Shown here: piece after piece, positions 17,916 to 51,881 of the stretch
Layout of the letters: the number at the start of each line of letters is the position of its first letter
Numbering within the stretch: the first letter of the stretch is position 1
Source: Myxococcota bacterium
Lineage (GTDB): Bacteria > Myxococcota_A > UBA9160 > SZUA-336
Reading direction: 5' to 3'
NCBI GenBank assembly: GCA_046757685.1
Contig: JBHHYV010000005.1
Span: 374-64,373 of the forward strand
DNA: 64,000 bases
The notes under the pieces: generated by a model
The model's input: the letters and a program-made list of their open reading frames with translations, nothing else
The model's database searches: none
What the model was told of the DNA's origin: nothing
Program-made: the position numbers and the translations under genes

Positions 17916-19860
<1,945 letters not shown>

Positions 19861-19863
<3 letters not shown>

Positions 19864-21405
19864 CGGGACCAGCCTTGCAAAGGCGTTCTGGAGCGCCCCA
19901 CGCCTGCCCGCCGGATCCGCGGGAAGCGCCAGGAGAGGAGTCGCATCGAGCTCGGGAATCCCGCTGCGCAACCTCCCGGACTCGGCCGCTCGCCGCGCCT
20001 GGAGCGTGGTGGCGAGCGGCACGATCGGTCGGCCCGAACCTCGGATCAGGCTCGAGATCGCCGCCCCCAGCGTCCGCGCCGACTCGTCCGGAGAGCCGTC
20101 GAGAACCGCCAGCCCACCGAGGGCCCCGTGACTCGCCACGTCGAGCAGCGGCGCGAAGAGCGGGTCGGCCGAGACACCCACCAGACGCAGGCACAGCTCT
20201 TCTCCGAGGGGCAGCTCCGCGAGGGTTCCGACCTGGGCCAGGGTCGAGCCCGAGGGGTCGCGCGCGGGGCGGCGCCGGGCGAGGCCACCCTCCGCCTCGA
20301 GTGCGTCCATCAGGCAGGCGAGTGCCGTCTCGGACGAGGGAAGCACCAGCACCTTGAGCTCGCGGCCCGGGCGCGTGCGCTGCGAGTCCATCCAGTCGCC
20401 GATGCGACGCACCTGCTTGGGAGTGAGCAGCTCCGCGGGCGCGGGGGTGGTGTCTCGCACCTCGGGCGCCGGGCTCACCACCGCGAGCGCTCCGCGCGCC
20501 ATCAGGTCCTGGATCGCCCGCAGGACCTGGTAGTCCGGGGCCGGACAGCGATCGACGATGCTCGAGAGCGGCGCGTCGCTCGCGGCGGTATCCAGGACCT
20601 GCCGCCAGAGCGGATGGACGATATCGGGAAGCCTGGAGCGCGAGATCCGGAGCCGCAGGCGTGCGGCCTGGGGTGGGAGCTTCGGGCGCAGCCGGTCCCA
20701 CTCGTCCAGCTGTCGCGCCCCTTCGAGCAGGAGGGCGCGGGTGGAGCGCTCGATCCGCTGCTCGACCTCGACGGGAGTGGGCGAGAACTCGAAGTGTCCG
20801 GTGCGCCAGCTGAGCAGGCGGAAGAGGGCCTTCTCTCCGGTCAGCGACAGGCCCTCGGCGGTGCGCACACTCGCCGAGACGACCTGACCCGCGTCCAGGG
20901 CCAGGCTTCCGGCTCCCGCGTCGGAGGCCCCGGAGACCGCCAGGAGGCCCGTGCGACGGCTCCCCAGGAAGAGCTGGAGCAGGTCCGGGAGAGAGAGCTG
21001 CTCGAGACTTCCCGCGACCTCGCTCTGCGCGCGCGACGGCAGGGGATCGGGCGCGGGATCTCGCATGCGCTCGAGCTGGTCGCCGAGCTCCGCGTCGCCC
21101 CAGGGCGGCTCGAGGACTCCGTCCCGGACGTCCATCCCGACCGGCGTCTCGAGCACGTCGTCGACGAGGAAGAGGAAGCGCGCGTCGCGGGTGCGGGGAT
21201 TGCCACGGAGGATCTCCGCGAGTCGTGCACCGTCGATGATGGGCAGATCGATCGGACACACGATCAGCGCGGGCACGCGCTCGAGAGCCATCTCGAGCGC
21301 CGCAGCCCCGTGAACCGCCCGGTCGATGATGTGGCCGCCCGCGGCGCAGGCCTCGGAGAGGCGCTTGCCTCGGCCCGGGTCGTCGTCGGCGAGCAGGATT
21401 CGCAT
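19861..21405 (-). CDS. response regulator: REC domain + DUF4388 (PATAN-type) + uncharacterised C-terminal domain
   Basis: 514 aa; REC N-terminus MRILLADDDPGRGKRL...LIVCPIDLP; DUF4388 signature GSLEQLSLPDLLQLFLGSRRTGLLAVSGAS...GEKALFRLLSWRTGHFEF; ~250 aa C-terminal region unassigned. Confidence 0.75.
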
Positions 21406-21411
21406 GGTGGC

Positions 21412-23232
21412 CTAGCGCCCCATCCCGAGCCCGACCTCGGCGCGCAGCCGAAACGCCAGGTGTTCGACCAGAGCGGGATCCGAGGCGTGGAAGAGCCGGC
21501 GCTGGCCGTCCGCCTCGGGCGGTCCGGCGATCAGCGCATAGCCCGGAGCCTCACCGAAGCGGACGATCCAGCTGACGCTGGGATCGACACCGGTCGGGGG
21601 CGACAGGGCGTGCAGGTTCGGTCCCGAGGGCAGGGTGTCGCCGTCCACGGCTACGAAGACCTCGGTCGCGGCCTCGACCGCCCCGAGCGCCGCCAGGGGT
21701 GCCAGGAAGCCCGCCCGCTCCGCACCCGGCGAGAGGAAGAGCATCCCCGAGTCGCCGGGTCGGCTGACCAGCTCCGAGATCAGGATCTCCGCCGCGGAGC
21801 AGACCAGCTCCGCAGGAGCCGGCGCGCCGTGCTGGATCAGGCGGTCACAGAGCTCGGGCAGGGGCGCTGCGAGGTCGAGGCCGAGCTTGCGCAGCAAGCT
21901 GTGACGGTCTGCCTCCGCCCGCTGGCGTGCCCCATCGAGCAGCTCCTCGATGCTCGAGCCGTCCACCGGAAAGCTGGCGCTCCCGAGGCACGCGCCGAGG
22001 CCGGCGGTCCGGGTTTGCGCCTCGGAGTGCCGGGTCCCGATCCGGCTCGCGATGCGCCGCTTCAGGATCGTGCCTCCCAGTGGATCGGCCTCGGCCACCA
22101 GGATCCAGAGCTCCTCGCCCTGGCCGCGCGTCAGCAGGTCGGTCGAACGCATGCAGCTGCGCACCGCGTCCTCGAGCGCCACGCGCGAAGAGACCTCGCA
22201 CTCGCTCGCATCCACGCACAGCAGACCCAGGCTGCGGCCGAAGCGCTGCGCCTTGTGCAGCTCGAGCTGGGCGACCGCCTTCAGGAAGGCGAGGTCCGGA
22301 AGAGGCGGCTCGCCCGGGCTCTGGCCGGAAGGCTCGGAGCTGGGAGCCTCCAGCTCGCGGAGCGTGGGCTCCTCGATGCGCACGAGACGTTCGAGGGCCA
22401 GTGCGCCGAGCTCTCCGAGTCGAGCGCAGGTGCGCTCGGCCGTCCGCGGATCGCGCGTGCTGACCGGGTCCGCCGCCGCCATGTGCAGGACGGCCACGGC
22501 GAAGAGCACTCCTCCCCGCACACAGGGTGCGAGCAGCCGCATGCCCTCGTCTCCACGCGGACCCAGTGCCGTCGGCTCCCCGGCCCGCGCCCGGGCCAGC
22601 AACGAGGGCGGGAGCTCCGGGTCGACGCGCGAGGAGCCTTCGGGCAGCACCGCGGCGCGGCGAGGCAGCCCGGTCTCGGGATGGATCAGCCAGATCGCGC
22701 CGTCGCTCGCTCCCGCCTCGATCGTGTAGAGCTCGAGCAGCTTGCGGGCGACCGCATCGGGATCGCCCAGGGTGAACATGGCGGTCGCGCGCTCGTAGAG
22801 CGAGAGCTGACCCATGAACTCGAGGTTCTCGGAGACCAGGCGCGCATGCTCCTCGCGCAGGCGACGCTGGCGGAGGACTCCTTCGATGGCGGCGATCAGG
22901 CCGTCGGAGTCGATGGGCTTGAGCAGGTAGTCGGCGGCCCCGCAGCGCATGGCCGCGACGGCGGAACGAACGTCCCCGACGGCCGTGATGACCACGATCT
23001 CCTGGTCGGGCCAGCGCTCCCGAACGCGCTGGACCACCTCGACCCCGTTCATGTCAGGCATGACCAGGTCGGTCAGCACCACGTCGAAGCGCTCTCGCTC
23101 GAGCGTCGCGAGCGCCTCGGGACCGCTCGCGGCGAGAGTGACGCCGTAGCCCGCCGCGGAGAGCACCTCCTCGAGGTGCGAGCGAAAGTAGAGCTGGTCG
23201 TCGACCGCCAGAATCCGCGCCTCTGGAGTCAT
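21412..23232 (-). CDS. response regulator: REC + degenerate GGDEF-like domain
   Basis: 606 aa; REC domain (ILAVDDQLYFRSHLEE...FDVVLTDLVMPDMNGVEVV); degenerate diguanylate-cyclase-like motif TRGQGEELWILVAEAD in place of GG(D/E)EF. Confidence 0.7.
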   Translation of the reverse strand: MTPEARILAVDDQLYFRSHLEEVLSAAGYGVTLAASGPEALATLERERFDVVLTDLVMPDMNGVEVVQRVRERWPDQEIVVITAVGDVRSAVAAMRCGAADYLLKPIDSDGLIAAIEGVLRQRRLREEHARLVSENLEFMGQLSLYERATAMFTLGDPDAVARKLLELYTIEAGASDGAIWLIHPETGLPRRAAVLPEGSSRVDPELPPSLLARARAGEPTALGPRGDEGMRLLAPCVRGGVLFAVAVLHMAAADPVSTRDPRTAERTCARLGELGALALERLVRIEEPTLRELEAPSSEPSGQSPGEPPLPDLAFLKAVAQLELHKAQRFGRSLGLLCVDASECEVSSRVALEDAVRSCMRSTDLLTRGQGEELWILVAEADPLGGTILKRRIASRIGTRHSEAQTRTAGLGACLGSASFPVDGSSIEELLDGARQRAEADRHSLLRKLGLDLAAPLPELCDRLIQHGAPAPAELVCSAAEILISELVSRPGDSGMLFLSPGAERAGFLAPLAALGAVEAATEVFVAVDGDTLPSGPNLHALSPPTGVDPSVSWIVRFGEAPGYALIAGPPEADGQRRLFHASDPALVEHLAFRLRAEVGLGMGR

Positions 23233-27008: not shown

Positions 27009-27998
27009 CTAGTGGAGCACGCTCTTCTTGACGCCCGAGGGGGTCGCCGGCGGCGCGACGACGGGCCGGCGCGCGGCCTCCTCGGCGCTCTTCTTCGCGA
27101 GCAGCTTCGACAGCTCCGCCTGGGCCTTGTGGATGTCGCCCTCGTACTTGAGGATGATGTTCATCGTTCCGGCCACGAGCTCCGCCTCGAGGTGGTCCGC
27201 GTTCAGCGTCATCAGCGCGCGGGCCCAGTCGAGCGTCTCCGAGATCGAGGGACTCTTCTTGAGATCCAGGTCCCGGATCCGCTGCACCAGCTGCACGATC
27301 TCCTCGGCCAGTCGCCCGTCGATGCCCGGCACCTTCGTGTTCAGGATCTGGATCTCGAGCTCCTCGCTGGGGTAGTCGATCCAGAGGTGCAGGCAGCGAC
27401 GCTTGAGGGCGTCGGTCATCTCGCGCGCCTCGTTCGAGGTCAGGAAGACGAGCGGAATGTGACGCGCCTCGACGGTCCCGATCTCGGGCACGCTGACCGT
27501 GAAGTCGGAGAGGATCTCGAGCAGGAAGGCCTCGAACTCGGGGTCCGACTTGTCGACCTCGTCCACCAGCAGCAGGATCGGCTCCGGAGAGGTGATCGCC
27601 TTCATCAGCGGTCGGGGGACGATGAAGCGCTCGCTGAAGAAGACGTCGTCCTGGGCGGCGATCCGCTCGGAGGCCTCCTTCATGCTTCCGGCGCCTAAGA
27701 TCACCTCGCCGATCTTGTCGCGCAGCATCTGGGTGTAAAGCAGCTGCTTGGAGTACTCCCACTCGTAGAGGGCCTTGGACTCGTCCAGTCCCTCGTAACA
27801 CTGGAGCCGGATCAGCGGCCGTCCCAGGGCGCTCGAGACCACCTTGGCGAGCTCCGTCTTGCCGACGCCCGCGGGCCCCTCGACCAGGACCGGCTTCTGC
27901 AGCCGGTTGGCCAGGAACACGACCGTGGCGATCTTCTTGTCACAGACGTAGCCCTCTTCCCCGAGCCGCTTCTCGACGTCCTGTACCGAATCAAACAT
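27009..27998 (-). CDS. MoxR-family AAA+ ATPase (CoxD-like)
   Basis: 329 aa; Walker A VLVEGPAGVGKTELAKV, Walker B ILLVDEVDKSDPE, sensor/arginine-finger regions typical of MoxR. Confidence 0.85.
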   Translation of the reverse strand: MFDSVQDVEKRLGEEGYVCDKKIATVVFLANRLQKPVLVEGPAGVGKTELAKVVSSALGRPLIRLQCYEGLDESKALYEWEYSKQLLYTQMLRDKIGEVILGAGSMKEASERIAAQDDVFFSERFIVPRPLMKAITSPEPILLLVDEVDKSDPEFEAFLLEILSDFTVSVPEIGTVEARHIPLVFLTSNEAREMTDALKRRCLHLWIDYPSEELEIQILNTKVPGIDGRLAEEIVQLVQRIRDLDLKKSPSISETLDWARALMTLNADHLEAELVAGTMNIILKYEGDIHKAQAELSKLLAKKSAEEAARRPVVAPPATPSGVKKSVLH

Positions 27999-28596
27999 GG
28001 TTGCTCCTCACTGCCTGGATTTTGTCTGGGCGTGCATCGAGGTCCTGGCGGGGCACGCGCTCCTCGTTGTGCGCCATGAGGTCGAGGAGCCAGTCTCGCC
28101 ACAGGCGTTGATACCGGATCCCGAACTCCACCACCATCCGGCGGAAGGGATCGACGGTCCCCTCCTCGAGCGTCTCGAGCACGCGCTCGAGGTCGGAGAG
28201 CCGGCGCTCGACCTCGCGGAGACGCTGCTCCCCGAGCATCCCGACCTCGTCCGGCTCGAGCTGCGAGAGGAACGAGCACTTCTGGAGGAACTCGTTGCGG
28301 AGCAGGAAGTCGTAGCGGACGGGCCGGCCCCCCGGATAGGCGCGCCGGAGCCAGTCCCGAAAGGCCCGGCGGCCGGTCGCGGTCGGGCGGTAGAGATGCC
28401 GGGCTGGGCTCGACTTCTGGGGAACGACGGTCTTCTGGATCCAGCCGCGCGACTCCAGGCGCGCGAGCGCGGGGTAGAGCTGGCCGTCATTGAGGCCGAA
28501 GTCCTCGGAGTAGCTTCGGGCGAGCTGCTTCTTGATCGAGTAGCCGTGGGAGGGGGACTCGATCAGGACGCCCAGGATCGTGAACTCGACCGACAC
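27991..28596 (-). CDS. PadR-family transcriptional regulator
   Basis: 201 aa; wHTH with PadR signature ILGVLIESPSHGYSIKKQLARSYSEDFGLNDGQLYPALARLESRGWI. GTG start 1 nt after the ribBA stop. Confidence 0.8.
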   Translation of the reverse strand: MSVEFTILGVLIESPSHGYSIKKQLARSYSEDFGLNDGQLYPALARLESRGWIQKTVVPQKSSPARHLYRPTATGRRAFRDWLRRAYPGGRPVRYDFLLRNEFLQKCSFLSQLEPDEVGMLGEQRLREVERRLSDLERVLETLEEGTVDPFRRMVVEFGIRYQRLWRDWLLDLMAHNEERVPRQDLDARPDKIQAVRSNHV

Positions 28597-28597
28597 G

Positions 28598-29857
28598 TCA
28601 GCTCATCAGGCTCAACAGGTGCCCCAGCTTGTCGCGCTTGGTCCTGAGGTAGTGCAGGTTCTTCTCGTTCGGTCGGACCTCGAGCGGCACCCGCTCGACG
28701 ATGTGGAGGCCGTAGCCCTCGAGGCCCGCGCGCTTGGCCGGGTTGTTGGTGAGCAGCCGGATCTTGCGGACGCCCAGGTTGACGAGGATCTGGGCCCCGA
28801 CGCCGTAGTCGCGAAGATCGGCCTGGAATCCGAGTCGCTCGTTGGCCTGGACCGTGTCGAGCCCCTCCTCGTCCTGCAGGGCGTAGGCTCGGATCTTGTT
28901 CGCGATTCCGATTCCCCGCCCTTCCTGCCGCAGGTAGACCAGTACTCCCGTCCCGGCCTCCTGGATCATCTTGAGGGCGGTCTGCAGCTGGTCTCCGCAG
29001 TCGCAGCGAATCGAGCCGAAGGCGTCGCCGGTGAGGCACTCGCTGTGCATTCGAACCAGCGTGGGCTCATCGGGCTGGACGGTACCGCGGATCAGCGCCA
29101 CGTGATCGATGTGGTCGATCTCGTTCTTGAAGACGATGGTCCGGAAGTCGCCAAACTCGGAGGGCAGGTTCGACTCGGCCGCCCGGTGCACCAGGCTCTC
29201 GGTGTGGAGCCGGTACTTGATCAGGTCGGCGATCGAGAGAATCCGCAGGCCGTGCTTCTGGGCGAAGGCCCGCAGGTCCGGCATCCGCGCCATCGTGCCG
29301 TCCTCGTTCATGATCTCGCAGATCAGGCCGGCGGGCTTGAGACCCGCCAGGCGCGCGAGGTCGACGCTGCCCTCGGTCTGCCCCGAGCGCCGCAGCACGC
29401 CCCCGGGCTTGGCGATCAAGGGGAAGACGTGGCCGGGCCGCACCAGGTCGGTCGGCCGGGTCATGGAGCCGATCGCCACGGAGACCGTCCGGGCCCGGTC
29501 CGCCGCCGAGATGCCGGTCGTGACTCCCTCGCGCGCCTCGATCGAGACCGTGAATGCGGTGCCGAAAGGGGTCTGGTTCTGGGCATCGGGCACCATCATG
29601 GGAAGCTCGAGCTCCCGGGCCCGTTCCGGCGTCAGGGCAAGACAGACCAGCCCACGGCCGTGGGTCGCCATGAAGTTGACCGCCTCGGGAGTGACCTTCT
29701 CCGCCGCCATGCACAGGTCGCCCTCGTTCTCGCGATCCTCGTCGTCGACCAGGATCACCATCCTGCCGGCGCGGATGTCCTCGATGGCGTCGAGCACGGC
29801 GCTCGAGAACGCGTGGATCTCCTCCGCCTGCACCGCCTGCGTCTGCCGACTGCTCAT
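28598..29857 (-). CDS. ribBA: bifunctional 3,4-dihydroxy-2-butanone-4-phosphate synthase / GTP cyclohydrolase II
   Basis: 419 aa; DHBP synthase half ([21 protein letters not shown]) fused to GTP cyclohydrolase II half ([19 protein letters not shown]). Confidence 0.9.
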
Positions 29858-29885
29858 GGGTGGGAACGACTCCAGCCTTCGATGG

Positions 29886-29904
29886 GTACCTAGAGCTTAG
29901 GTAC
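29886..29904. promoter_or_regulatory. perfect inverted repeat GTACCTA-N5-TAGGTAC, third GGTACCT half-site ~12 nt downstream; candidate operator between ribBA operon and the mglA-like gene
   Basis: Seen directly in the 156-nt divergent intergenic region: atgGGTACCTAgagctTAGGTACgccgcgcggacGGTACCTtctg. Confidence 0.3.
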
Positions 29905-30013
29905 GCCGCGCGGACGGTACCTTCTGCCCCGGGGAGCGGTCAAGTCGGCGGGCGCCCGCGGCCGATACCCAGGGTGGACCGAACCCAGGACCCTAGAAGC
30001 CACGGGGCGCAAC

Positions 30014-30691
30014 GTGCCGCAGCTCAATCTCGAGACCCGCGAGATTACACTCAAGATCGTCTACTACGGGCCGGCCCTCTCCGGCAAGACGACGAACCTG
30101 CAGCAGCTCCACTCGCTGCTCGGCCGGCAGGTCCGCGGCAAGATGGTCACTCTCGATACCCAGGACGACCGGACGCTCTACTTCGACTTCCTGCCGGTCG
30201 AGTTCGGGTCCGGGGACTACCGGATCCGCCTCAAGCTCTTCACGGTCCCCGGCCAGGTCATGCACCGCTCGACCCGGCGGGTGGTGCTCGCGGGTGCGGA
30301 CGCAGTCGTCTTCGTCTGCGACTCCCAGCGCAGCGCCGCCTCCGCCAACGCCTACTCCTACCGGGACCTCGGCACCAATCTCAAGGCGAACGGGCTCGAT
30401 CTCGAGACGCTCCCGCGAGTGATCCAGTTCAACAAGCGGGACGTTCCCGACGTGAAGCCGCTGGCGGAGATCCGCGAGGCGTGGAAGGACAGCGACGTCC
30501 CCGTGGTGCCAGCGGTCGCGGTCTCGGGCGAGGGAGTGATCGAGACCTTCCGCCTGCTGCTCGAGCGTCTCTACGCCGATCTGGATCGGCGGCATGGCTT
30601 CGGCCGTCAGTTCGGCCTCTCTGCGGAGGCCTTCCTGGAAGGGGTGCTCGGGGACCTGCCGCCGAAGCCCGAGGAGCCGCCGCTCGCCTGA
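30014..30691 (+). CDS. MglA-family Ras-like small GTPase (orphan, no adjacent MglB)
   Basis: 225 aa; aligns along its length with Myxococcus MglA. P-loop YYGPALSGKTTNL (MglA YYGPGLCGKTTNL); switch I TQDDRTLYFDFLP with Arg/Thr; switch II FTVPGQV with catalytic Gln; NKRD guanine-specificity motif. Confidence 0.8.
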   Translation: MPQLNLETREITLKIVYYGPALSGKTTNLQQLHSLLGRQVRGKMVTLDTQDDRTLYFDFLPVEFGSGDYRIRLKLFTVPGQVMHRSTRRVVLAGADAVVFVCDSQRSAASANAYSYRDLGTNLKANGLDLETLPRVIQFNKRDVPDVKPLAEIREAWKDSDVPVVPAVAVSGEGVIETFRLLLERLYADLDRRHGFGRQFGLSAEAFLEGVLGDLPPKPEEPPLA

Positions 30692-30703
30692 AGCGGGCGA
30701 AGC

Positions 30704-31693
30704 TCAGCGGATCTGGAGCTTCTCGAGCAGCTCCGCCGCGGCCCGCATCGGGGTGACTCGCCCCTCCCCCACCGACTGCTCCAGCGCTCGCAAGCGCTCG
30801 TGCAGTCGCGGATCCCGGTCGAATCGAGCGCGCACGCCCTCCTCGACGAGCCGCCAGAGCCAGCTGCGCGCCTGGCGGGAGCGGCTCTCGCGCCGCTCGC
30901 CGCTCGCCTCCTGGATCCGTCGGTGCTCGAGAACCTGCTCCCAGAACTCGCGAACGCCCTCGCCGGTCTGCGCGCTCGCGGACAGGACCTTCGGTCGCCA
31001 GTGGCGGGAAGGCGGCCGCAGCAGCTGCAGGGCGTGCTCGTAGTCCCGGCGGGTGCGAGCGGCGAGCTCCACCTGCTCGCCGTCGCACTTGTTGACGACC
31101 AGCAGGTCCGCCAGCTCCAGGACGCCCCGCTTGATCCCCTGCAGCTCGTCTCCCGCCCCGGGCTGGAGGAGCACGCAGAAGAGGTCGACCATCGAGGAGA
31201 CCGCGAGCTCGGACTGCCCGACCCCGACCGTCTCGATCAGCACCACGTCGTAGCCCGCCGCCTCGCAGACGATCACGGCCTCGCGGGTCCGCTCTGCGAC
31301 GCCCCCGAGCGCACCGCCCGAGGGCGAGGGCCGGATGAAGGCGCGCGGCTCTCGAGCGAGCTTCTCCATCCGAGTCTTGTCTCCAAGGATGCTTCCGCCG
31401 CTCACGGGACTCGAGGGATCGACCGCCAGCACCGCGACGCGGTGGCCCCCCTGCACGAGCGAGAGGCCGAGCGTCTCGATGAACGAGCTCTTCCCGACGC
31501 CGGGGGAGCCCGTCAGGCCCACGCGCTGGGCTCCGCCGGCATGAGCGCCCAGCGCGTCCAGGATCTCGGCGGCCTGCTCCCGGTGCTCGGGCCGCTGGCT
31601 CTCGAGCAGGGTAATGGCCCGGGCGACCCCGCGACGCTCCCCTGCGAGCACGCGGCGGCAGAGATCGGCCGCGTCCTCGAACGAGCCGCTCAT
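30704..31693 (-). CDS. meaB: methylmalonyl-CoA mutase-associated G3E GTPase MeaB/ArgK
   Basis: C-terminal ~330 aa of track ORF 30704..32335: [20 protein letters not shown]...[22 protein letters not shown]...VNKCDGEQ. Start [11 protein letters not shown] at ATG ~31691-31693. Confidence 0.85.
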
Positions 31694-33873
31694 GCGCGGC
31701 GCGCGCGCACTGCCTCGAGCACCCCGCTCGCGGCCTCGGGAATCGGCGTTCCCGGACCGAAGACCCGCGCCACGCCCAGCGCCTGCAGACGCGCGTGATC
31801 CCGCGAGGGAATGACCCCGCCGCAGATCACGACGATGTCTCCCGCCCCCTCCGCGCGCAGCGCGTCGATCAGCTGGGGTACCAGCGTCCGGTGGCCCGCG
31901 GCCAGGGTCGAGACCCCGACCACGTGCACGTCGTTCTCCACCGCCTGGCGCGCCGCCTCCTCGGGGGTCTGGAAGAGGGGGCCGATGTCGACGTCGAAGC
32001 CGAGATCGGCGAAGGCGCTGGCGATGATCCGCGCCCCCCGGTCGTGGCCGTCCTGGCCGAGCTTGACCACCAGCATTCGCGGGCGCCGGCCCTCGTCGCG
32101 TTCGAAGGCCTCCACCTCCTTCTGGATTCGCTCCAGCGCCTCGTCGTCGCCGAACTCGGCGCGGTAGACACCCGAGACACCCCGCGTCTCGGCCCGGTGG
32201 CGGCCGAAGACGTCCTCGAGCGCCTGGGAGATCTCGCCGACCGTCGCCCGCGCGCGCGCCGCCTCGAGGGCGGCCTCGAGCAGGTTGGCCTCGCCGCGTG
32301 CCGCGTCTCGAAGCGCGTCGAGCGAGCGTCGCCAACGCTCTGCATCCCGGCGAGCGCGTACCTCGTGGAGCCTGCGAATCTGGGCCTCGCGTACCGCGCG
32401 GTTGTCGATGTCGAGCACCTCGACCGGCTCGTCGCTCTCGGGCGCATAGCGGTTCACGCCCACGATCACCTCCTCGCCTCGATCGATGCGCGCCTGCCTG
32501 CGGGCGGCAGACTCCTCGATTCGCATCTTCGGCATTCCCGACTCGATCGCCGCGGTCATGCCGCCCTGCGCCTCGATCTCGTCGATCAGCTGCTGCGCCG
32601 CGTGCGCGAGCGAGTGGGTCAGGCTCTCGACGTAGTAGCTTCCACCGAGGGGGTCGATCACCGAGGGGATCCAGGTCTCCTCGGCCAGGATCAGCTGGGT
32701 GTTCCGCGCGATGCGCGCGGAGAAGGGCGTGGGCAGGGCCAACGCCTCGTCGAAGGAGTTGGTATGCAGCGACTGCGTCCCTCCCAGCACGGCGGCCAGC
32801 GCCTCGAGCGTCGTGCGGACGATGTTGTTGTAGGGGTCGCGCGCCGTCAGGCTGACCCCGGAGGTCTGGCAGTGGGTGCGCAGCATCGAGGAGCGCGGGT
32901 CGCGCGGCCCGAAAGGCTCGATCAGCCGGGACCAGAGCAGGCGGGCCGCGCGCAGCTTCGCGATCTCCATGAAGAAGTTCATGCCGATCCCGAAGAAGAA
33001 CGAGAGCCGGGGTGCGAAGGCATCGATCTCGAGCCCGCGGCCCAGAGCCGCCCGGACGTACTCGAGCCCGTCCGCCAGCGTGAAGGCCAGCTCCTGGACC
33101 GCGGTCGCGCCGGCCTCCTGGATGTGGTAGCCCGAGATCGAGATCGAGTTGTAACGGGGCATGTGCGCGGCGGTGTACTCGATGATGTCCGCCACGATCC
33201 GCAGGCTGGGGGAAGGCGGGTAGATGTAGGTGTTGCGGACCATGAACTCCTTGAGGATGTCGTTCTGGATGGTCCCCGAGAGCTGCTCCTGCGGCACGCC
33301 CTGCTCCTCGGCTGCCACCACGTAGCAGGCGAGCGTGGGAAGCACCGCCCCGTTCATGGTCATCGAGACCGACATCTGGTCGAGGGGGATGCCGTCGAAG
33401 AGCATCTTCATGTCCTCGACCGAGTCGATGGCGACGCCCGCGGCGCCGACGTCGCCCTCGACGCGCGGATGGTCCGAGTCGTACCCCCGGTGGGTGGCCA
33501 GGTCGAACGCCACCGAGAGCCCCTTCTGGCCCGCCTCGAGGTTCTTGCGGTAGAAGGCGTTCGACTCCTCGGCGGTCGAGAACCCGGCGTACTGCCGCAC
33601 CGTCCAGGGCCGGTTGGCGTACATCGTGGCGCGAGGACCCCGCACGAAGGGAGCGAGCCCGGGAAAGGTATCCAGGTCCTCGAGGCCCTCGAGATCGGCC
33701 TCGGTGTAGAGGGGCCGGATCCGGAACCCCTCGGGCATCTCGCGCTCGAGAGCTTCCAGGCTCCGCCCGCGCAGCTCCCTCTCCGCCTGCTTGCGCCAGG
33801 CCTCCCCGTCGGTCTGGGGGTGGGTGGTCTGGGGGTGGGTGGTCTGGGGGTGGGTCCCGTCTCGCTTCGTCAT
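31690..33873 (-). CDS. methylmalonyl-CoA mutase (large subunit with C-terminal B12-binding domain)
   Basis: 727 aa; mutase catalytic core plus DxHxxG-type B12 domain ([30 protein letters not shown]). N-terminus carries the tandem [15 protein letters not shown] repeat. Confidence 0.9.
33811..33855. repeat. 3 x 15-bp perfect tandem repeat (ggtctgggggtgggt) encoding THPQT x3 at the mutase N-terminus
   Basis: Seen directly at ~33811-33855. Confidence 0.8.
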
Positions 33874-33889
33874 CGGTAGCCTCCGCTCC

Positions 33890-36800
33890 CTACATGGCCC
33901 GACGATAGCGCCCGCCGGCTTCGAAGAGCGCTTCGGTGATCTGTCCGAGGCTCGCGACCTTGACCGTCTCCATCAGCTCCTCGAAGACGTTGCCCCCCGC
34001 GAGCGCCACCGCTCGCAGGCGCGCCAGTGCTGCGGGGGCCTCGTCGCGATGGCGCCTCTGGAAGGCGCGCACACCCTCCAGCTGAGCGCGCTTCTCGTCC
34101 AGGCTCGCGCGCACCAACGTCTGCGGCGTCTCGGCGCGAGGCTCCGGGTGGGCGCGGACGAAGGTGTTCACCCCCACCACGGGCAGCTCTCCAGAGTGCT
34201 TGAGCGACTCGTAGTGCAGGCTCTCGTCCTGGATGCGGCCGCGCTGGTACATGGTCTCCATCGCCCCCAGCACCCCCCCACGCTCGGCGAGGCGGTCGAA
34301 CTCCTCGAGGACGGCCTCCTCGACCCGGTCCGTCAGGATGCGGGTCAGGATGGCTCCCTGGAGGGGGTTCTCGTTCTTGAGCGTCCCGAACTCGCGGGTC
34401 AGGATCAGCTGGATCGCGAGGGCGCGGCGTACGGACTCCTCGGTCGGTGTCGTGACGGCCTCGTCGAAGGCGTTGGTGTGCAGGCTGTTGCAGCGGTCGC
34501 AGAGTGCCGTGAACGCCTGGATCGTGGTGCGGATGTCGTTGAAGCTCATCTCCTGGGCGTGCAGGGAGCGACCGGAGGTCTGGATGTGGTACTTCAGCTT
34601 CTGGCTACGCGTCGCGGCGCCGTAGCGCTCGCGCATCGCGATCGCCCAGATGCGCCGCGCCACCCTGCCGATCACGGCATACTCGGCGTCGAGGCCATTC
34701 GAGAAGAAGAACGAGAAGCTCGGCGCAAAGGTGTCGATCTCGAGGCCGCGCGCGAGGTAGTACTCGCAGTAGGTGAACCCGTTCGCGAGCGTGAAGGCGA
34801 GCTGGGTCAGCGGGTTCGCACCGGCCTCGGCGATGTGGTAGCCGGAGACCGAGACCGAGTAGAAGTTGCGGACGTCGTGGGCGCAGAAGTACTCCTGCAC
34901 GTCCCCCATCAGGCGCAGCGAGAACTCCGTCGAGAAGATGCAGGTGTTCTGCGCCTGGTCCTCCTTCAGGATGTCGGCCTGCACGGTGCCGCGGACCCGC
35001 GCCAGGGCGTCGGCCCGGATGCGCGAGTAGGTCTCCGGGTCCACGACGCGATCGCCGCGGGTGCCGAGCAGGGCCAGGCCGAGCCCGTCGTGCCCCTGCG
35101 GGAGGGGTCCGAGGTAGCGGGGCCTCGAGCTCTCGCCCTCCCGATCCAGGCGGGCCCGGACGCCTTCCAGACGGCCGCTCTCGGCCAGGTGCCGCTCCAC
35201 GGCCTGGTCGATGGCGGTGTTCAGGAAGAAGGCCAGGATCACGGCGGCGGGCCCGTTGATCGTCATCGAGACCGAGGTGCTCGGATCGAGCAGGTCGAAG
35301 CCGGAGTAGAGCTTCTTCGCGTCGTCGAGCGAGCACACCGAGACTCCCGAGGTCCCCACCTTGCCGAACACATCCGGACGCTCCTCGGGATCGCGGCCGT
35401 AGAGGGTGACGCTGTCGAATGCCGTCGAGAGCCGGACGGAGGGCTGGCCGCTCGAGAGCAGGTGAAAGCGCCGGTTCGTGCGCTCGGGCGGGCCCTCGCC
35501 CGCGAACATCCGGGTCGGATCCTCCCGACCGGTGCGGCGGAACGGGAAGACCCCGGCGGTGAAGGGAAAGAAGCCCGGCAGGTTCTCCTCGCGCAGGAAG
35601 CGGATCCGCTCCCCCCAGTCGGGAAGCTCCGGGGCCGCTACCCGCGGAAGGGCGAGACCCGAGAGGGTCTCGAAGCGGTTGCTCACCTCGATCTCCCGGT
35701 CGCGAACGCGGTAGCTCTGGCGCTCGCGGCGATAGCGCGCCAGCGTCTCCGGCCAGGCCTCGATCCGCTCGCGGTCGGCGGGGTCGAGCGCCGCGAGCGC
35801 CTCTCGGGCCTGCTCCCGGAGGCGCTCGGGAGGCTCGCGCAGCAGCTCGATCGCCCGTGCGAGCGCCTGCGCGTCCCGGGCGCGCTCGACCGCGTCCCGG
35901 GTTCGCTCCCGGTAGAGGCGAACGCTCTGGGCGATCTCGGCCAGGTAGCGGACGCGCGCCGCCGGGATCAGGGGAGGCGCGACCTCGGGCGCGGGGCCGG
36001 TGGAGGCGGCAGGCACGAAGCCCTGGAAGCCCGCCTCTGCGAGCCGTCCCGCGAGCGCCCGGTAGACCCGGTCGGTTCCCCGGTCGGCGTAGCGGCTCGC
36101 GACCGCCGGAAAGATCGGCAGCTCCTCGTCGGGAGTCTCGGTCGCGTCGTGGCTGCGACGCCACTGGCGGCGCACGTCGCGCAGCGCGTCGCTCGCCCCC
36201 GCACGATCGAATTTGTTGAGCACCGTGAGATCGGCGAGCTCGAGCATGTCGATCTTCTCGAGCTGTGAGGGGGCGCCGAACTCCGGGGTCATGACGTAGA
36301 CGGAGAGGTCGGCGCGGTCGACGATCTCGGAGTCCGCCTGGCCGATGCCCGCAGTCTCGACCACGATCCAGTCGAAGCCCGCCGCCTGGACGACCCGGAT
36401 CGCATCGTCGATCGCACCGGAGAGAGCCAGGTGGGCGCGGCGTGTCGCCATGGAGTGAACGAACACGCGGGGGGGCCGGATCGCGTTCATCCGAATGCGG
36501 TCGCCGAGCAGCGCGCCGCCGGAGCGCCGTCGGGTCGGGTCGACGGAAAGGATCGCGACGCTCCTCGAGGGGCTCTCGACCTGGAAGCGGCGAACACACT
36601 CGTCGACGAGCGTCGACTTTCCGGCCCCGCCCGTTCCGGTGACGCCGACGACCGGCGCCGGGGGCCCCTTGCGCCGAAGATCGAGCCGGCTACGCAGATC
36701 CGCGACGCGTCGCGCGTCCCCCGGCGCGCCCCGCTCGAAGAAGGAGATCAGACGGGCGATCGCGAGCGGCTCTTCGACGCAGAGTCGCTCGAGCTCGGCT

Positions 36801-37267
36801 TCGGGCTCGACCCGGGGCCGCTCCGAGCACTCCCGGACGATGCACTGCAGCATGCCGCGCAGGCCGAGCCGCTGGCCATCTTCCGGGCTGAAGATCCGGG
36901 CCACTCCGTAGCGCTGGAGCGCCTCGATCTCGTCGGGCACGATCGTGCCACCTCCGCCCCCGTAGATGCGGATGTGATCCGCCCCCCGCTCGCGCAGCTG
37001 GTCGACCAGGTAGCGGAAGAACTCGAGGTGCCCCCCCTGGTAGGAGCTGACCGCCACCGCGTCGGCGTCCTCCTGGAGCGCGGCCGTGACGATCTCGTCC
37101 ACCGAGCGATCGTGACCCAGGTGAATCACCTCGCAGCCCAGCTCCTGGAGCAGCCGCCGCATGATGTGGATGGCCGCGTCGTGCCCATCGAAGAGCGCGG
37201 CCGCCGTCACGACCCGGATCGGGGAGTCGGGCGCAGGAGCCGGCTCGAGCAGGCGGGCGCGCGTCAT
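33890..37267 (-). CDS. icmF: fused isobutyryl-CoA mutase IcmF (B12-binding + MeaB-like GTPase + mutase domains)
   Basis: 1125 aa; N-terminal B12 domain ([32 protein letters not shown]), central G3E GTPase ([16 protein letters not shown]...VLNKFD), C-terminal mutase barrel. Confidence 0.85.
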
Positions 37268-44386: not shown

Positions 44387-45094
44387 GCCGACTCTCCGGA
44401 GTCCAGGCGTTCGAGCGCGCGCGCCGCAGCCCGCTGCTCGGCCAGCTGCTTCGAGGAGCCCGAGCCGCGCGCCGCGAGCATCCCCCGGAAGGAGACGCCA
44501 ACCTCGAACTCCGGCCGGTGGGCCGGTCCACGAGAGGCCAGGAGCGCGTAGCTGGGATGCGGCTCGCCGCGCGCCTGCAGCCACTCGCTCAGGCGCGACT
44601 TGGCGTCCAGGCGGGAGGCTCCCGGCGACTCCAGGCCGGGGCCGACGACCCGTTCGATCAGCTGCCGGGCTGGCTCGAGTCCCCGGTCCGCGTACACGGC
44701 ACCGACGACGGCTTCGAAGACGTCGGCCAGGATCGAGTCCTTGTCGGCCCCGCCGCTCTGGCGCTCGCCGCGGCTGAGCCGAACCTCCGCCCCGAGCGCG
44801 AGGGTCCGCGCGTGGCCTGCGAGCGCCTCGCGGTTGACCGCGTTCGCTCTCGCCCGGGTCAACTCGCCCTCGGGAGCCTCGGGTGCGAGACGCATCAGCA
44901 GATCGCTCACCACCAGCTCCAATACCGCATCTCCCAGGAACTCGAGCCGCTCATAGTGTGCGGCGGATCCGGCCCCGGTCTCGTGGGCGTAGGAGGGGTG
45001 GGTGAGCGCCTGGGCGAGGAGCCTGCGATCGCGAAACGCGTGGCCGATGCGCTGCTCCACGCGCTCCAGCACCGCGACCGGATCCTCAGGCCGC
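44380..45094 (-). CDS. rnc: ribonuclease III
   Basis: Track ORF 44380..45276; RNase III signature ERLEFLGDAVLELVVSDLL and C-terminal dsRBD; probable GTG start giving MLERVEQRIGHAFRDRRLLAQALTHPSY. Confidence 0.85.
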
Positions 45095-46177
45095 GTCAGC
45101 GATCCAGCCTCCGCCGAGCACACGGTCGTCGCCGGCGTCGTAGACCACCGCGGCCTGGCCCGGTGCGGCGGCGCGGATCGGTCGCTCGAAGTGCAGCGTC
45201 GCCCGCTCGCCGCGGTGGACCTCGAGCCGCGCCCGGGTCGCGCGCTGCCGGTGGCGCACCTGCGCGCAGACCTCACCGGCCGGGGGCGCGGGCGTCAGCC
45301 ACGAGGTCCGAACGAGATCGATCGAGTCGCGCTCGACGTCGGAGCTGCGGCCGACCACCAGCCGGTTGCGCTCGGGCTCGACGCGGCGCACGAACCACGG
45401 CCCGCCCGACAGGCCCAGGCCGCGACGCTGACCGACCGTGTAGCCGACGGCTCCCGGGTGAGTTCCGAGGCGTCGACCTTGCGGGTCCACGATCTCTCCG
45501 GGGCCCCGCCGGGCCTCCGGCCGCAGCGCGTGGATGACCGGCCGGACGTCGCCCTCTGGGATGAAGCAGATGTCCTGGCTCTCGGGCTTGTCGGCGGTGG
45601 CGAGTCCGAGCTCGCGCGCCAGCGCGCGGACCTCGGACTTCGAGAGCTCCCCGAGCGGGAACGCGACCGCGTCGAGCAGGGCCCGGGGCAGGTCGAAGAG
45701 GAAGTAGGTCTGGTCCTTGTCTCGATCTCGAGGCCGGTAGAGCGCAGGTCCGCGATCGGGCCCGGGCGCCAGGCGGGCGTAGTGCCCCGTGGCGACGCCG
45801 CGCGCACCGAGCGAACGCGCCCTCGCGACGAGCCGGCCGAACTTGAGCATACGGTTGCAATCGATGCAGGGGATGGGCGTCTCGCCGCGGGCGTAGGCCT
45901 CGGCGAAGGGCTCCACGACGTCGCGCCGGAAGGCGTCGCGGTAGTTGACCACGTAGTGACGAATTCCGAGCGCCCGAGCGACGCTGCGTGCGTCCATCGC
46001 CTCGGAGTCTCCACAGCAGCGTGAGGTGCGCCGCGACGAGGCATCTGTGGACTCTTCGAGAGGGCTCCCGAGGTCCATCGTCACGCCCACCACCTCGGTC
46101 CCCTCGCGCGCGAGCAGGGCCGCGGCGACGGACGAGTCGACCCCCCCGCTCATGGCGACCAGCCAACGCTCCCTCAT
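45086..46177 (-). CDS. mnmA: tRNA-specific 2-thiouridylase MnmA
   Basis: C-terminal ~363 aa of track ORF 45086..46579; PP-loop LVAMSGGVDSSVAA, catalytic Cys region PCIDCN. Confidence 0.85.
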   Translation of the reverse strand: MRERWLVAMSGGVDSSVAAALLAREGTEVVGVTMDLGSPLEESTDASSRRTSRCCGDSEAMDARSVARALGIRHYVVNYRDAFRRDVVEPFAEAYARGETPIPCIDCNRMLKFGRLVARARSLGARGVATGHYARLAPGPDRGPALYRPRDRDKDQTYFLFDLPRALLDAVAFPLGELSKSEVRALARELGLATADKPESQDICFIPEGDVRPVIHALRPEARRGPGEIVDPQGRRLGTHPGAVGYTVGQRRGLGLSGGPWFVRRVEPERNRLVVGRSSDVERDSIDLVRTSWLTPAPPAGEVCAQVRHRQRATRARLEVHRGERATLHFERPIRAAAPGQAAVVYDAGDDRVLGGGWIADAA

Positions 46178-49042: not shown

Positions 49043-49490
49043 GTGCGTCGGACCTTCTCTGCAAGTGCCTGCGACCGCGGACCGACCGGATCGAGGTACA
49101 GGCGTCGCGCGCAGTCTGACGCAATCTCCAGCCGGATCCAGAGCCGGTCCCTTCCCAGGGCCTCGGGAAAGCGATCCGCCCACTCCACCACGACCACTCC
49201 GCGGCCGTCGAAGAGGTCGTCGAACCCGGCATCCCAGAGCCGCTGGAGCGACTCCACGCGGTAGAGATCGGCGTGGTGCAGCGGAGGATCGGTCGGGTAC
49301 TCCGCCACCAGGGTGTAGGTCGGGCTCGTGACGGGCGCCGAGTCCTCGAGACCCAGGCCGCGCGCGAGTCCCTGGGCGAGCACGGTCTTTCCGACGCCGA
49401 GCGGACCGACGAGCCCTACGACGTCGCCGGCGCGCAGCAGCGATCCGAGGCTCCTCCCCAGGGCCCGCGTGGAGGCCGCGCTAGGGGAAG
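49033..49490 (-). CDS. tsaE: tRNA t6A biosynthesis ATPase TsaE (YjeE)
   Basis: C-terminal ~150 aa of track ORF 49033..49743: GDVVGLVGPLGVGKTVLAQGLARGLG...SPTYTLVAEY...HADLYRV. Confidence 0.75.
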
Positions 49491-51082
49491 TCACGGACCA
49501 GGTCGTCACCCTGCGCCTCCCCCCGGGTGGGGTGCTCCGCCGCCAGGGCCCGCCACGCACTCGGAAGCCGCTCGGCGAGCTCTCCCGCCGTCCCGCCAAC
49601 CCCGGGCCCGAGGTCGCCGGCCAGGCCGTGCAGGTAGGCGCCGAGGCCAGCCGCCTCGAGGGGGGACAGCCCCTGGCCGAGCAGCGCGGCGACGCACCCC
49701 GAGAGCACGTCTCCGCTCCCGCCGGCCGCCAGACCCGGTCCACCGGTGGGGTTGACGAGGACCTCGCCGTCGGGCGCGCAGGCGAGGCTGCGGGAGCCCT
49801 TCAGGAGCACCACCGCTCCGGTCGCGCGGGCCAGCGATCGCGCCGCGCCCACGCGGTCGCGCTGCACCGCGGCAACGTCCAGGCCCAGGAGTCGCGCCAT
49901 CTCACCGGGGTGCGGCGTCAGCACCCGCACCGCGCGGGAGCGCAGGTCGGCGGGGCGACCCGCGAACCAGTTGAGGGCGTCCGCATCCACGACGGTGGGA
50001 CGCTCGCAGCCTGCGAGCAGGCGCTCGAGGGCTCGGCCCGTCTCGGGGGCCGTTCCCAGCCCGGGACCGACCACCACCGCGCTGCGCTGTGCAGCCGCCT
50101 CGAGCAGGGCGCCGGCCGACCCCTCGGCCAGCATGCCACCTCCCGCATCGGCGACGGGGAGACTCATCGACTCGCGAGAGGCGGCCGCGAGAACCGGATC
50201 GAGGCTCGCGGCGGCAGCGAGTGTGACCAGCCCTGCCCCGCTGCGCAGGGCCCCCTCGCCCGCCAGCAGAAGCGCGCCGGTCTTGCCGGTCGAGCCGCCC
50301 ACGACCAGCACGTGTCCATAGCTGCCCTTGTGGCTCCGGAGCGGGCGAGCCGGCAAGCGAGCGCGCGCCGCGCCGCGCGTCCAGAGGTGCTGGCGGACCG
50401 CCACGCGCTCGAGGCCTTCCCCCGGGAACCCCAGGTCGGCGACCACCACCTTCCCGGTGCTCGCTCGCAGGGCCTGTCCGAGCTTGGGAAGCCCCAGTGC
50501 CGCGATCAGCGCCGGCTCCAGGACGGGTCCCAGGAAGTCCCCGGTCTCGCACGACTGGCCCGAGGGCACGTCGAGGCAGGCCAGCGGCAGATCCGAGTCC
50601 GCCAGCCTCTCGAGGATTGCGCCGAACAGGCCCTCGACCGGACGCGCCAGCCCGACGCCGAGCAGCGCGTCCACCGCGAGGTCCGCGCCCCGGATCAGCG
50701 GCTCGAGGCCGCTCGCCTCCTTCAGCGCGACCACCTCGATCCCACAGGCTCCGAGCATGTCGCGATTGACGCGGGCCTCGGCGCTCTGGCGGTTCGGATC
50801 CCCCACGGCCACCACCACCGGTCGCACGCGGCGATCCCACTCGCGCAGCACTCGAGCCAGGGCAAACCCGTCGCCGCCGTTGTTGCCGGGGCCGCAGATC
50901 ACCAGTGGGCGCTCGAACCCGCCCAGCTCGCGGCGCAGCGCGAACGCCGTCCCACGCGCCGCGTTCTCCATCAGCAGTCTCTCGGGAAGCCCCGCTCCCT
51001 CGATGGCAAAGCGATCGATCGCTCGCATCTCGTCGGCCGTCGGACAGGGCCAGCCCCGCTGCTCGAGCGTACTCGAATCCAC
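49481..51082 (-). CDS. nnr: bifunctional NAD(P)H-hydrate repair enzyme Nnr (epimerase + ADP-dependent dehydratase)
   Basis: C-terminal ~530 aa of track ORF 49481..51430; YjeF-N (LVICGPGNNGGDGFALAR) and YjeF-C (KGSYGHVLVVGGSTGKTGALLLAGEGALRSGAGLV...GGSGDVLSG). Confidence 0.8.
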   Translation of the reverse strand: MDSSTLEQRGWPCPTADEMRAIDRFAIEGAGLPERLLMENAARGTAFALRRELGGFERPLVICGPGNNGGDGFALARVLREWDRRVRPVVVAVGDPNRQSAEARVNRDMLGACGIEVVALKEASGLEPLIRGADLAVDALLGVGLARPVEGLFGAILERLADSDLPLACLDVPSGQSCETGDFLGPVLEPALIAALGLPKLGQALRASTGKVVVADLGFPGEGLERVAVRQHLWTRGAARARLPARPLRSHKGSYGHVLVVGGSTGKTGALLLAGEGALRSGAGLVTLAAAASLDPVLAAASRESMSLPVADAGGGMLAEGSAGALLEAAAQRSAVVVGPGLGTAPETGRALERLLAGCERPTVVDADALNWFAGRPADLRSRAVRVLTPHPGEMARLLGLDVAAVQRDRVGAARSLARATGAVVLLKGSRSLACAPDGEVLVNPTGGPGLAAGGSGDVLSGCVAALLGQGLSPLEAAGLGAYLHGLAGDLGPGVGGTAGELAERLPSAWRALAAEHPTRGEAQGDDLVRDFP

Positions 51083-51209
51083 GCCGCGAGAAGCTAGCAG
51101 GCCCCGACCGAAGCCACTCGAGCGAGACGAGCGAGACCTCCTCCGTGGGGAGGCCGACTCCCTCGCGCCTGCAGCCGGAGCCCGCCGCCGAGTCGGCGGC
51201 CCGGCGCGA

Positions 51210-51881
51210 TCAGATCTCCTGGGGCCTCGACGTGCGCCGGGCGCCCGCCAGTGTGCCCGGCACCCACGCGATCGCCACCAGTCCGGCGAGCAGCGGGGCG
51301 AGCAGGTGTGCGAAGACCAAGTGGAGGGGATCCGAGATCCCGCAAGCCACGTGGCCCGGCAGGGCGACGAGCGCGGCGATGCCCACGACGCCCAGCACTG
51401 CGGTCGCGACAGGGCGCCGCGGGACCCCATGGCCGATGAAGCGCGTGACGAAGTAGGCGGGCAGCAGCGCCGGAACCAGGGTGAGCCCCAGGCAGGTCAG
51501 ACCGCTCGCCAGGCCCGCGGCCGCGGGAGTGGGGAGCGCAACCAGGTAGACGGCGATCGCGACCGTGGCTGCCAGGCCGGCTCCGGCGATCGAGAGCCCG
51601 GCGCGCTCGAGCCGGATGCGGCCCGGCACACACGCGCCGAGAGCGGCCGCGAGAGCTCCGGCCGCCACGGCTCCGTGGCCCGCCACCGCCAGCCACGCGC
51701 CCGGGCGGCTCGGAGCCGAGCCGAACACACCCACCGCGACCGCGACCAGGCACGAGGCGGCGGCCGCCCCTACGGCCAGGGTGAGACCGAGCGCCGCCGC
51801 GCGGGAGAGCGGGGGCAGGATCTCGACCGGCCTCAGGTCCGCCGAGAGACGCTCGATCAGCTCGTCCGTGCTTGGACTCAC
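51210..51881 (-). CDS. anti-sigma factor, DUF1109/NrsF-like polytopic membrane protein
   Basis: 223 aa; short cytoplasmic N-terminus MSPSTDELIERLSADLRPVE then ~6 TM segments with conserved Cys; start overlaps the ECF sigma stop (ATGA). Confidence 0.65.
   Translation of the reverse strand: MSPSTDELIERLSADLRPVEILPPLSRAAALGLTLAVGAAAASCLVAVAVGVFGSAPSRPGAWLAVAGHGAVAAGALAAALGACVPGRIRLERAGLSIAGAGLAATVAIAVYLVALPTPAAAGLASGLTCLGLTLVPALLPAYFVTRFIGHGVPRRPVATAVLGVVGIAALVALPGHVACGISDPLHLVFAHLLAPLLAGLVAIAWVPGTLAGARRTSRPQEI

Follow-up and report, generated by a model that had tools for sequence, protein, structure and literature searches.

A Group 1 MglA-family GTPase of a Myxococcota bacterium, very probably a paralog of the SofG type

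A stretch of 64,000 nucleotides from a Myxococcota bacterium (GenBank assembly GCA_046757685.1, contig JBHHYV010000005.1, positions 374 to 64,373 of the forward strand), called the window below, carries at 30014..30691 a gene for a small GTPase of the MglA family. A preliminary description had singled the gene out as an orphan, that is, an MglA-type gene without an adjacent MglB gene. Comparison with its relatives indicates that the GTPase is very probably a paralog of the SofG type. That it also has the cellular role of SofG is a distinctly more tentative proposal, made by analogy with Myxococcus xanthus. Taken as one statement, namely, that the protein is a SofG-type paralog with the SofG role and not a canonical MglA that lost its MglB, this reading appears reasonably probable.

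The GTPase and its closest relatives

The gene and its motifs lie at the following positions.

30014..30691, plus strand: coding sequence of a Group 1 MglA-family small GTPase, very probably SofG type (GTG start, TGA stop, 225 amino acids [aa]; assigned from the MglA match in the PDB, the structure model, and the tree).
30068..30091, plus strand: G1/P-loop, G19-P-A-L-S-G-K-T26 (alignment to MglA; G19 and S23-T27 are invariant in 118 family members).
30170..30175, plus strand: switch I with the intrinsic arginine finger R53 and T54, the Group 1 signature (aligned to the DRT of MglA; invariant in 118 relatives).
30242..30256, plus strand: G3, T77-V-P-G-Q81, in which Thr replaces the usual Asp and Gln is catalytic (alignment to MglA; invariant in the family).
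30431..30442, plus strand: G4, N140-K-R-D143, for guanine specificity (alignment to MglA; invariant in the family).
30593..30661, plus strand: C-terminal extension, residues 194-216 (not in the 195-aa MglA; two short predicted helices; common to SofG-like proteins).

The open reading frame (ORF) is confirmed as a real coding gene. Its GC contents at the third and second codon positions (GC3, 0.91; GC2, 0.41) form the pattern of genuine genes in a window of 70% GC, and a 100% identical protein, named "ATP/GTP-binding protein," is found in the public data in a metagenome-assembled genome (MAG) of a Myxococcota bacterium. Among solved structures (PDB, phmmer), the closest were the MglA proteins of M. 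xanthus (E = 6e-49) and Thermus thermophilus (E = 1e-48), matched over residues 4-193, and the next families, Rab and Arf, followed at E > 1e-4. The AlphaFold model, built with 118 relatives, had a predicted local distance difference test (pLDDT) score of 81 and a predicted template modeling score of 0.84, and 14 of its 14 top Foldseek matches in the PDB were MglA, with template modeling scores of 0.85 to 0.90 on the target. Pfam returned its generic Arf model alone (29.6 bits), and NCBIfam holds no specific model for the protein. Group 1 of the MglA family is defined by an arginine beside the switch I threonine together with a TVPGQ motif in G3 (Wuichet and Sogaard-Andersen, 2014; PMC4316618). 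Judged by its sequence, the GTPase is a member of this group: it is closest to MglA and carries Arg-Thr in G2, TVPGQ in G3, and the (N/T)KxD motif. The preliminary description had called it an MglA-family GTPase with an intact P-loop, switch I Arg/Thr, switch II Gln, and NKRD, and this was borne out, since all of these motifs were read in the sequence and the alignments and are invariant in the family. A GTPase of the actinobacterial conservon type (MglA Group 2, with Thr in G2, GTPGQ, and a deviant G4) was ruled out by R53, TVPGQ, and NKRD; a Pfam search of the window found no genes of a conservon operon (kinase, roadblock, and CvnC) near the GTPase gene.

Past the G domain, residues 194-225 have no counterpart in MglA by alignment, so that the protein runs ~30 aa beyond the end of the 195-aa MglA. 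The helices of this extension are predicted at residues 196-200 and 204-212, and the blocks over residues 191-210 have pLDDT values of ~89 to 90 in the AlphaFold model. Orphans of such a length are familiar from the Myxococcales. The genomes covered contain a 195- to 196-aa MglA beside MglB and an orphan of 220 to 242 aa (listed are MXAN_6703, which is SofG, LILAB_12945, COCOR_07291, STAU_1215, A2cp1_4477, Hoch_2556, and sce0386; in one Anaeromyxobacter strain the orphan has 271 aa), and most of them, Haliangium excepted, also have a 335- to 433-aa paralog, which in the Cystobacterineae stands beside a PATAN gene (PMC4316618, Table S2). SofG itself is an orphan of 239 aa whose GTPase activity is not stimulated by MglB; in M. 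xanthus it acts with the bactofilin BacP to place PilB and PilT at the pole (PMC4316618, PMC4085708).

The best 120 database relatives of the GTPase have 215 to 228 aa and 66 to 86% identity, apart from three longer gene calls of 237 to 276 aa. When one genome per GTDB species was scanned, 90 loci were retrieved, and the relatives fell into two tiers. The first, referred to here as the window clade, comprises ~57 species with 59 to 76% identity to the GTPase. The second consists of 22 loci with 48 to 57% identity and includes Myxococcus llanfairpwll... (L080) and Pyxidicoccus sp. (L087), whose proteins have ~239 to 240 aa.

Three lines of evidence led us to file the GTPase as SofG type. First, over 189 MAFFT columns of the G domain it is 56% identical to the Myxococcus L080 protein compared to 43% for M. 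xanthus MglA (~50% for MglA when read from the HMMER alignment). Second, a phylogeny against MglA and SofG paralogs, which the preliminary description had proposed as a check and which was run here as a neighbor-joining tree of 92 sequences and 189 columns, placed the GTPase with the SofG-type proteins: one clade holds all 220- to 260-aa proteins, including the window clade and L080/L087 (bootstrap 74/100), and stands apart from the canonical and the long-tailed proteins. Within it, the window clade is supported in 100/100 replicates. Third, a hidden Markov model (HMM) built only from the tails of the window clade (residues 188-216) matched, outside the clade, 23 SofG-like tails, in the expected position and with E values from 7e-11 to 5.5e-3 (Pyxidicoccus L087, 5.6e-4; Myxococcus L080, 5.5e-3), and matched no canonical or long-type protein below E = 0.28.

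No MglB gene was found by any of the searches. Pfam detected no Robl_LC7/MglB domain in any called ORF of the 64-kb window, and tblastn with M. xanthus MglB (query sequence checked against 6H5B) gave nothing better than E = 2 in the window and no MglB in the 90 related loci. The statement that no MglB adjoins the GTPase gene thus holds for the whole window. The gene also differs from the canonical MglA/MglB module in having no mglB within four genes and in encoding 225 aa, compared to ~195 to 201 aa without an extension. However, the lack of MglB is ordinary, because SofG-type paralogs normally have no adjacent mglB. The framing of the gene as an unexplained orphan must therefore be given up: the GTPase clusters with SofG-type paralogs (bootstrap 74/100) and has their C-terminal extension, the very outcome that the preliminary description had set against its own proposal. 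The GTPase should not be treated as a new GTPase system in further work.

The same data bear on another explanation, that this is a fast-evolving canonical MglA orthologue whose MglB is encoded elsewhere, as a split mglA/mglB pair. This is unlikely. Although every catalytic residue of MglA is retained, orphan MglA genes of 196 to 197 aa exist (for example, Bd3734 and sce1402; PMC4316618, Table S2), and the data cover a 64-kb window of the genome, a 225-aa protein with a SofG-type extension does not fit a canonical MglA, nor does its grouping with the Myxococcus SofG-type protein, to which it is 56% identical (L080) compared to 43 to 50% for MglA.

As a separate observation, the 150 best representatives of 50% identity clusters were mostly proteins of 300 to 930 aa in which an MglA-type G domain at the N terminus is followed by a long and variable C-terminal tail, as in MXAN_2693. 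These long-tailed proteins apparently form a large, diverse, and unstudied class.

The PocR-domain neighbor of SofG-like genes and the proposed role

Outside the window clade, a PocR-domain gene lies directly downstream of the SofG-like gene, on the same strand, in all 22 of the 22 loci, often with a 4-bp overlap with the GTPase stop codon. The neighbor is a PocR-HisKA-HATPase_c histidine kinase in 19 of these, including Myxococcus L080, Pyxidicoccus L087, and a Bdellovibrio sp. MAG (L085), and a stand-alone PocR protein in the other three (L068, L070, and L088). A Lon protease gene is found upstream in eight of the outside loci. Example loci from the SofG-like set (L068-L090) are as follows.

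L087:2155-3654.
L069:10693-12126.
L080:2129-3637.

This adjacency is a regularity observed here and not a published criterion for SofG. The searchable literature contains no mention of a link between SofG and a PocR kinase, which is not proof of novelty. We know of no GTPase-activating protein (GAP) or guanine nucleotide exchange factor for SofG, and the PocR-domain gene is a concrete candidate regulator of it; the adjacency holds in Myxococcus and Pyxidicoccus as well. The window clade, a large uncultured group in which the GTPase-PocR linkage is broken, offers a natural comparison. A hint of how the linkage was broken comes from the Deltaproteobacteria MAG RBG_13_61_14 (L088:10001-12277), where the SofG-like GTPase gene is followed by a stand-alone PocR gene and then by a moxR gene whose product is 66% identical to the MoxR of the window. 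This order and the MoxR likeness hint that, in the ancestor of the window clade, the place of the PocR gene was taken by ribBA, and L088 is possibly an intermediate between the GTPase-PocR order and the GTPase-ribBA-moxR-vwa order of the window clade. The side results of this analysis, that is, the PocR pairing, its loss, and the PadR operator described below, may interest specialists in bacterial polarity.

If the protein works as a SofG-type paralog, the following picture can be drawn. The GTPase would be a nucleotide switch that hydrolyzes GTP with its own arginine finger, R53, and with Q81, as its family suggests, and it would be expected to be insensitive to MglB, as is M. xanthus SofG. 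Its GTP form would be expected on a cytoskeletal or polar scaffold (the bactofilin BacP in M. xanthus), where it would position the type IV pilus (T4P) ATPases PilB and PilT. The conserved C-terminal extension, as the family-specific part, probably gives partner specificity. In the window clade, the gene would have left its usual place ahead of a gene for a PocR sensor, in most cases a histidine kinase, and now sits frozen after meaB; in the sub-lineage of the window, the gene and its promoter-like motif were inverted, which left them back to back with the promoter-like boxes of ribBA.

Several points weigh against the assignment to SofG or its role. The proposed cellular role is carried over from a single studied organism and presupposes T4P motility in the lineage of the window. 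L080 was taken as SofG from its genus, its length of ~239 aa, and its orphan status, without a direct comparison to MXAN_6703. The tree was built by neighbor joining from 189 columns, includes few canonical MglA sequences, and gives the SofG-type clade 74% support. Finally, neither the window nor any other locus of the window clade has the PocR-domain gene, be it for a kinase or for a stand-alone protein, and because this gene is missing, the regulatory wiring of the GTPase may differ from that of SofG.

Gene order, inversion, and the intergenic region

The GTPase gene is the sole plus-strand gene from ~3.8 kb to 45 kb of the window. On one side, 156 bp separate it from the divergent ribBA (28598..29857, minus strand); on the other, it faces the convergent meaB at a distance of 12 bp. 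The features that surround it are listed here.

29886..29904: perfect palindrome GTACCTA-N5-TAGGTAC (GTACCTAGAGCTTAGGTAC), candidate PadR operator of ribBA-padR.
29938..29969, plus strand: bipartite promoter-like motif of the GTPase gene, GGTCAAG-N17-CCGATACC (conserved upstream; putative promoter function).
29938..30703: lineage-specific inverted segment comprising the promoter-like motif and the coding sequence, reversed compared to ~57 species (approximate, with putative end points).
30704..31693, minus strand: MeaB, paired with a separate methylmalonyl-CoA mutase.
31690..33873, minus strand: the separate methylmalonyl-CoA mutase.
33890..37267, minus strand: fused B12-binding-MeaB-mutase protein (IcmF-like).

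The last three features make up tandem B12-dependent mutase systems (30704..37267, minus strand), an arrangement that is conserved throughout the clade.

Gene order was compared by searching the proteins of the window against the 90 retrieved loci with tblastn. In the window clade the order on one strand is icmF-like, mcm, meaB, GTPase, ribBA, (padR), moxR, vwa, miaB-like, (bfn), REC-GGDEF, REC-PATAN, and cNMP-binding. The meaB and GTPase genes are adjacent, 80 to 330 bp apart, in all window-clade loci that have both (~57 GTDB species), and insertions of 1.8 to 4.6 kb occur between GTPase and ribBA alone (L027, L030, L031, L037, L042, and L056). The GTPase gene is reversed only in the window, in L008, which has an identical protein from an independent sample, and in L009, whose protein is 86% identical. 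Because L008 and L009, two further and independent assemblies, show the same reversal, the plus-strand island is a real, lineage-specific inversion of a single gene and not an assembly artifact. Inverted repeats flanking the flipped gene were sought as its cause, and none that was convincing was found.

The upstream spacer of the GTPase gene, which otherwise does not align, contains a clade motif, CTnnA-N16-GCCGAT(G/A). Its second box precedes the gene in 59 of 63 species-level loci, compared to a mean of 7.2 and a maximum of 15 in shuffled sequences, and the full bipartite motif was found in 48 of 63 (shuffles, mean of 1.0 and maximum of 5). Within the window, the full motif is present only here. 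Scans of 29700..30900 with sigma-70 and terminator consensus sequences gave no match; the GCCGAT(A/G) box has a putative likeness to the -10 element of promoters of the sigma-28 (FliA/WhiG) type. Read on the opposite strand, the first box of the motif spells out TTGACC, the -35-like box of ribBA, with which it overlaps. The motif of the GTPase gene and the boxes of ribBA stand back to back because the motif travelled with the gene in the inversion. The earlier proposal that the GTPase gene is a lone transcription unit diverging from ribBA is supported, with the conserved motif upstream as the basis on which independent transcription is inferred; the motif may be what drives it.

The constant place of the gene after meaB suggests one further explanation, that the GTPase serves the B12 mutase/MeaB system or riboflavin synthesis. 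The adjacency in every window-clade locus with both genes would fit, as would insertions on the ribBA side only. However, the GTPase spacer has its own conserved promoter-like motif, the inversion in the lineage of the window leaves the mcm-meaB and ribBA genes unchanged, and SofG-like genes outside the window clade never adjoin meaB, which together make this explanation highly improbable. Neither mutases nor RibBA are known to employ a Ras-like switch.

The palindrome in the intergenic region, which the preliminary description had mentioned together with the GTPase gene, is present and perfect, but its link to that gene did not stand. It occurs once in the window and in 0 of 100 shuffles, it is retained in L008 and L009, and it sits between the promoter-like boxes of ribBA and the ribBA start. 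Upstream of ribBA, the sequence TACCTA-N5-TAGGTA is present in all 7 of the 7 loci with padR after ribBA (among them L004, L012, L014, and L015; four of the seven loci are contigs of a single species) and in 0 of 50 loci without padR. The window, too, has both padR (27991..28596) and the palindrome. Since the palindrome tracks the presence of padR, we assigned it to the control by PadR of its own ribBA-padR operon: judged from this pattern, it is most likely a candidate PadR operator and not an element of the GTPase gene. This correlation provides a clean operator prediction for the ribBA-padR operon. An Rfam search of the ribBA leader and intergenic region found no flavin mononucleotide riboswitch.

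The only Rfam match was to V_AS9, a Vibrio antisense RNA, at 29626..29715 on the plus strand, antisense within the 5′ part of the ribBA coding sequence (51.8 bits against a gathering threshold of 50). The match is probably due to conservation within the ribB coding sequence and not to an RNA gene.

Elsewhere in the window, the gene at 53585..54760 (plus strand) fuses a proline-rich repeat region, which matches the Cornifin model, to a SoxA/TsdA-type cytochrome c domain. Three further ORFs have good codon bias and no Pfam match (45002..46024, plus strand; 49328..51097, plus strand; and 51210..51881, minus strand). The last of these follows a gene for an extracytoplasmic function sigma factor and could encode the anti-sigma factor of that sigma factor.

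A proposed PATAN partner and comparison with known systems

The preliminary description had pointed to a REC-DUF4388 (PATAN) protein as a possible partner of the GTPase. Its gene and the four regions of its model (pLDDT 89.3) are as follows.

19861..21405, minus strand (corrected): REC-DUF4388 (PATAN) gene, 514 aa.
Residues 1-118: receiver-like domain (Pfam REC at 24.2 bits, below the threshold of 30.2; Pro51 at the phospho-acceptor position in an alignment to the CheY pattern).
Residues ~130-242: PATAN domain (Pfam, E 1.8e-23).
Residues 249-310: small helical region (model).
Residues 349-510: C-terminal alpha/beta domain (model).

The gene is flanked by genes for a REC-GGDEF protein (21412..23232) and a cyclic nucleotide monophosphate (cNMP)-binding protein (19409..19870), and the three look like one operon. 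For the REC-DUF4388 protein, which is clade restricted, only 479 relatives were detectable, and the 120 of them that were listed have 461 to 536 aa, mostly ~500 to 520. Going by the residues at its phospho-acceptor site, the receiver-like domain is probably a pseudo-receiver.

The C-terminal domain had been suggested as a place to look for a roadblock fold by structure prediction. Roadblock proteins have the element order alpha-beta-beta-alpha-beta-beta-beta. In the model of the C-terminal domain the order is beta-alpha-beta-beta-alpha-beta-alpha-beta-alpha-(beta)-alpha, which corresponds one to one with the MglA-type GTPase model. A roadblock fold is not supported on this ground, as the predicted order is Ras-like. 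Neither a P-loop nor an NKxD motif is present in the domain, Pfam gave no match to it, and hhalign against the GTPase family gave a probability of 0.13%. A PDB profile search returned only Rab11 and Rab5 (E 0.6 to 1.4), and the Foldseek PDB list was filled by receiver-domain matches. From the modeled order of elements the domain is possibly a pseudo-GTPase, an assignment without significant hhalign or profile support.

Could this protein regulate the GTPase or serve as its effector, replacing MglB, perhaps through its Ras-like pseudo-GTPase domain? Such a partnership would be compatible with a SofG-type GTPase, and some observations lean toward it. PATAN genes occasionally adjoin Group 1 and Group 5 mglA genes (PMC4316618), and cyanobacterial PATAN domains bind the T4P motor PilB1, which falls in the functional sphere of SofG (bioRxiv 10.1101/2021.06.11.447907). 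The gene stays 8 to 10 kb away throughout the clade, and in one SofG-like locus beyond it, L075, a homologue of REC-PATAN is found at a distance of 5 kb. However, five or six housekeeping genes on the opposite strand lie in between, and among the 22 outside loci with a SofG-like gene, a PATAN gene is close by in only 1. The constant distance carries no specific signal because the gene is part of a frozen 20-kb synteny block. In addition, the PATAN-adjacent paralog of the Myxococcales is of a different, 335- to 379-aa type, a roadblock-like order of elements was not seen, and the Ras-like assignment is statistically unsupported. The partnership is thus improbable, although the literature on PATAN domains makes it a reasonable idea. 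Slightly less probable still is a wider scheme, in which the GTPase, uncoupled from PocR, would be regulated by the pseudo-receiver-PATAN protein as a GTPase/pseudo-GTPase pair replacing a roadblock GAP, and in which SofG-like GTPases and PocR proteins elsewhere would form an undescribed two-gene signaling module. If this were true, the SofG-like/PocR module could supply the long-missing regulator of SofG.

Against this background, the SofG-type assignment of the GTPase can be set beside four known systems. The nearest is SofG of M. xanthus (MXAN_6703) with its orthologues: like these, the GTPase has a Group 1 G domain with the Arg finger, falls in the length class of 220 to 242 aa, carries the extension, is an orphan, and belongs to the same clade. 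Unlike these relatives, it has no PocR gene next to it, lies between meaB and ribBA, is inverted, and has 56% G-domain identity to the Myxococcus protein. With the MglA/MglB modules of M. xanthus (MXAN_1925/1926) and T. thermophilus it shares the fold, the P-loop, R53/T54, TVPGQ, and NKRD; it differs from them in having no mglB in the window, 30 aa more at the C terminus, a separate clade, and 43 to 50% identity. A third case is Bd3734 of Bdellovibrio bacteriovorus, a Group 1 MglA without MglB that, together with RomR, still works in T4P and prey invasion (PMC4316618). It resembles the GTPase in its group and in lacking MglB, but at 197 aa it has the canonical length and no SofG-type extension. 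Finally, the MXAN_2693-type paralogs (335 to 379 aa), from which the PATAN-MglA link in the literature originates, have a Group 1 G domain like that of the GTPase, whereas their long C-terminal tails, their separate branch, and a PATAN gene that is directly adjacent and not 9 kb off set them apart from it.

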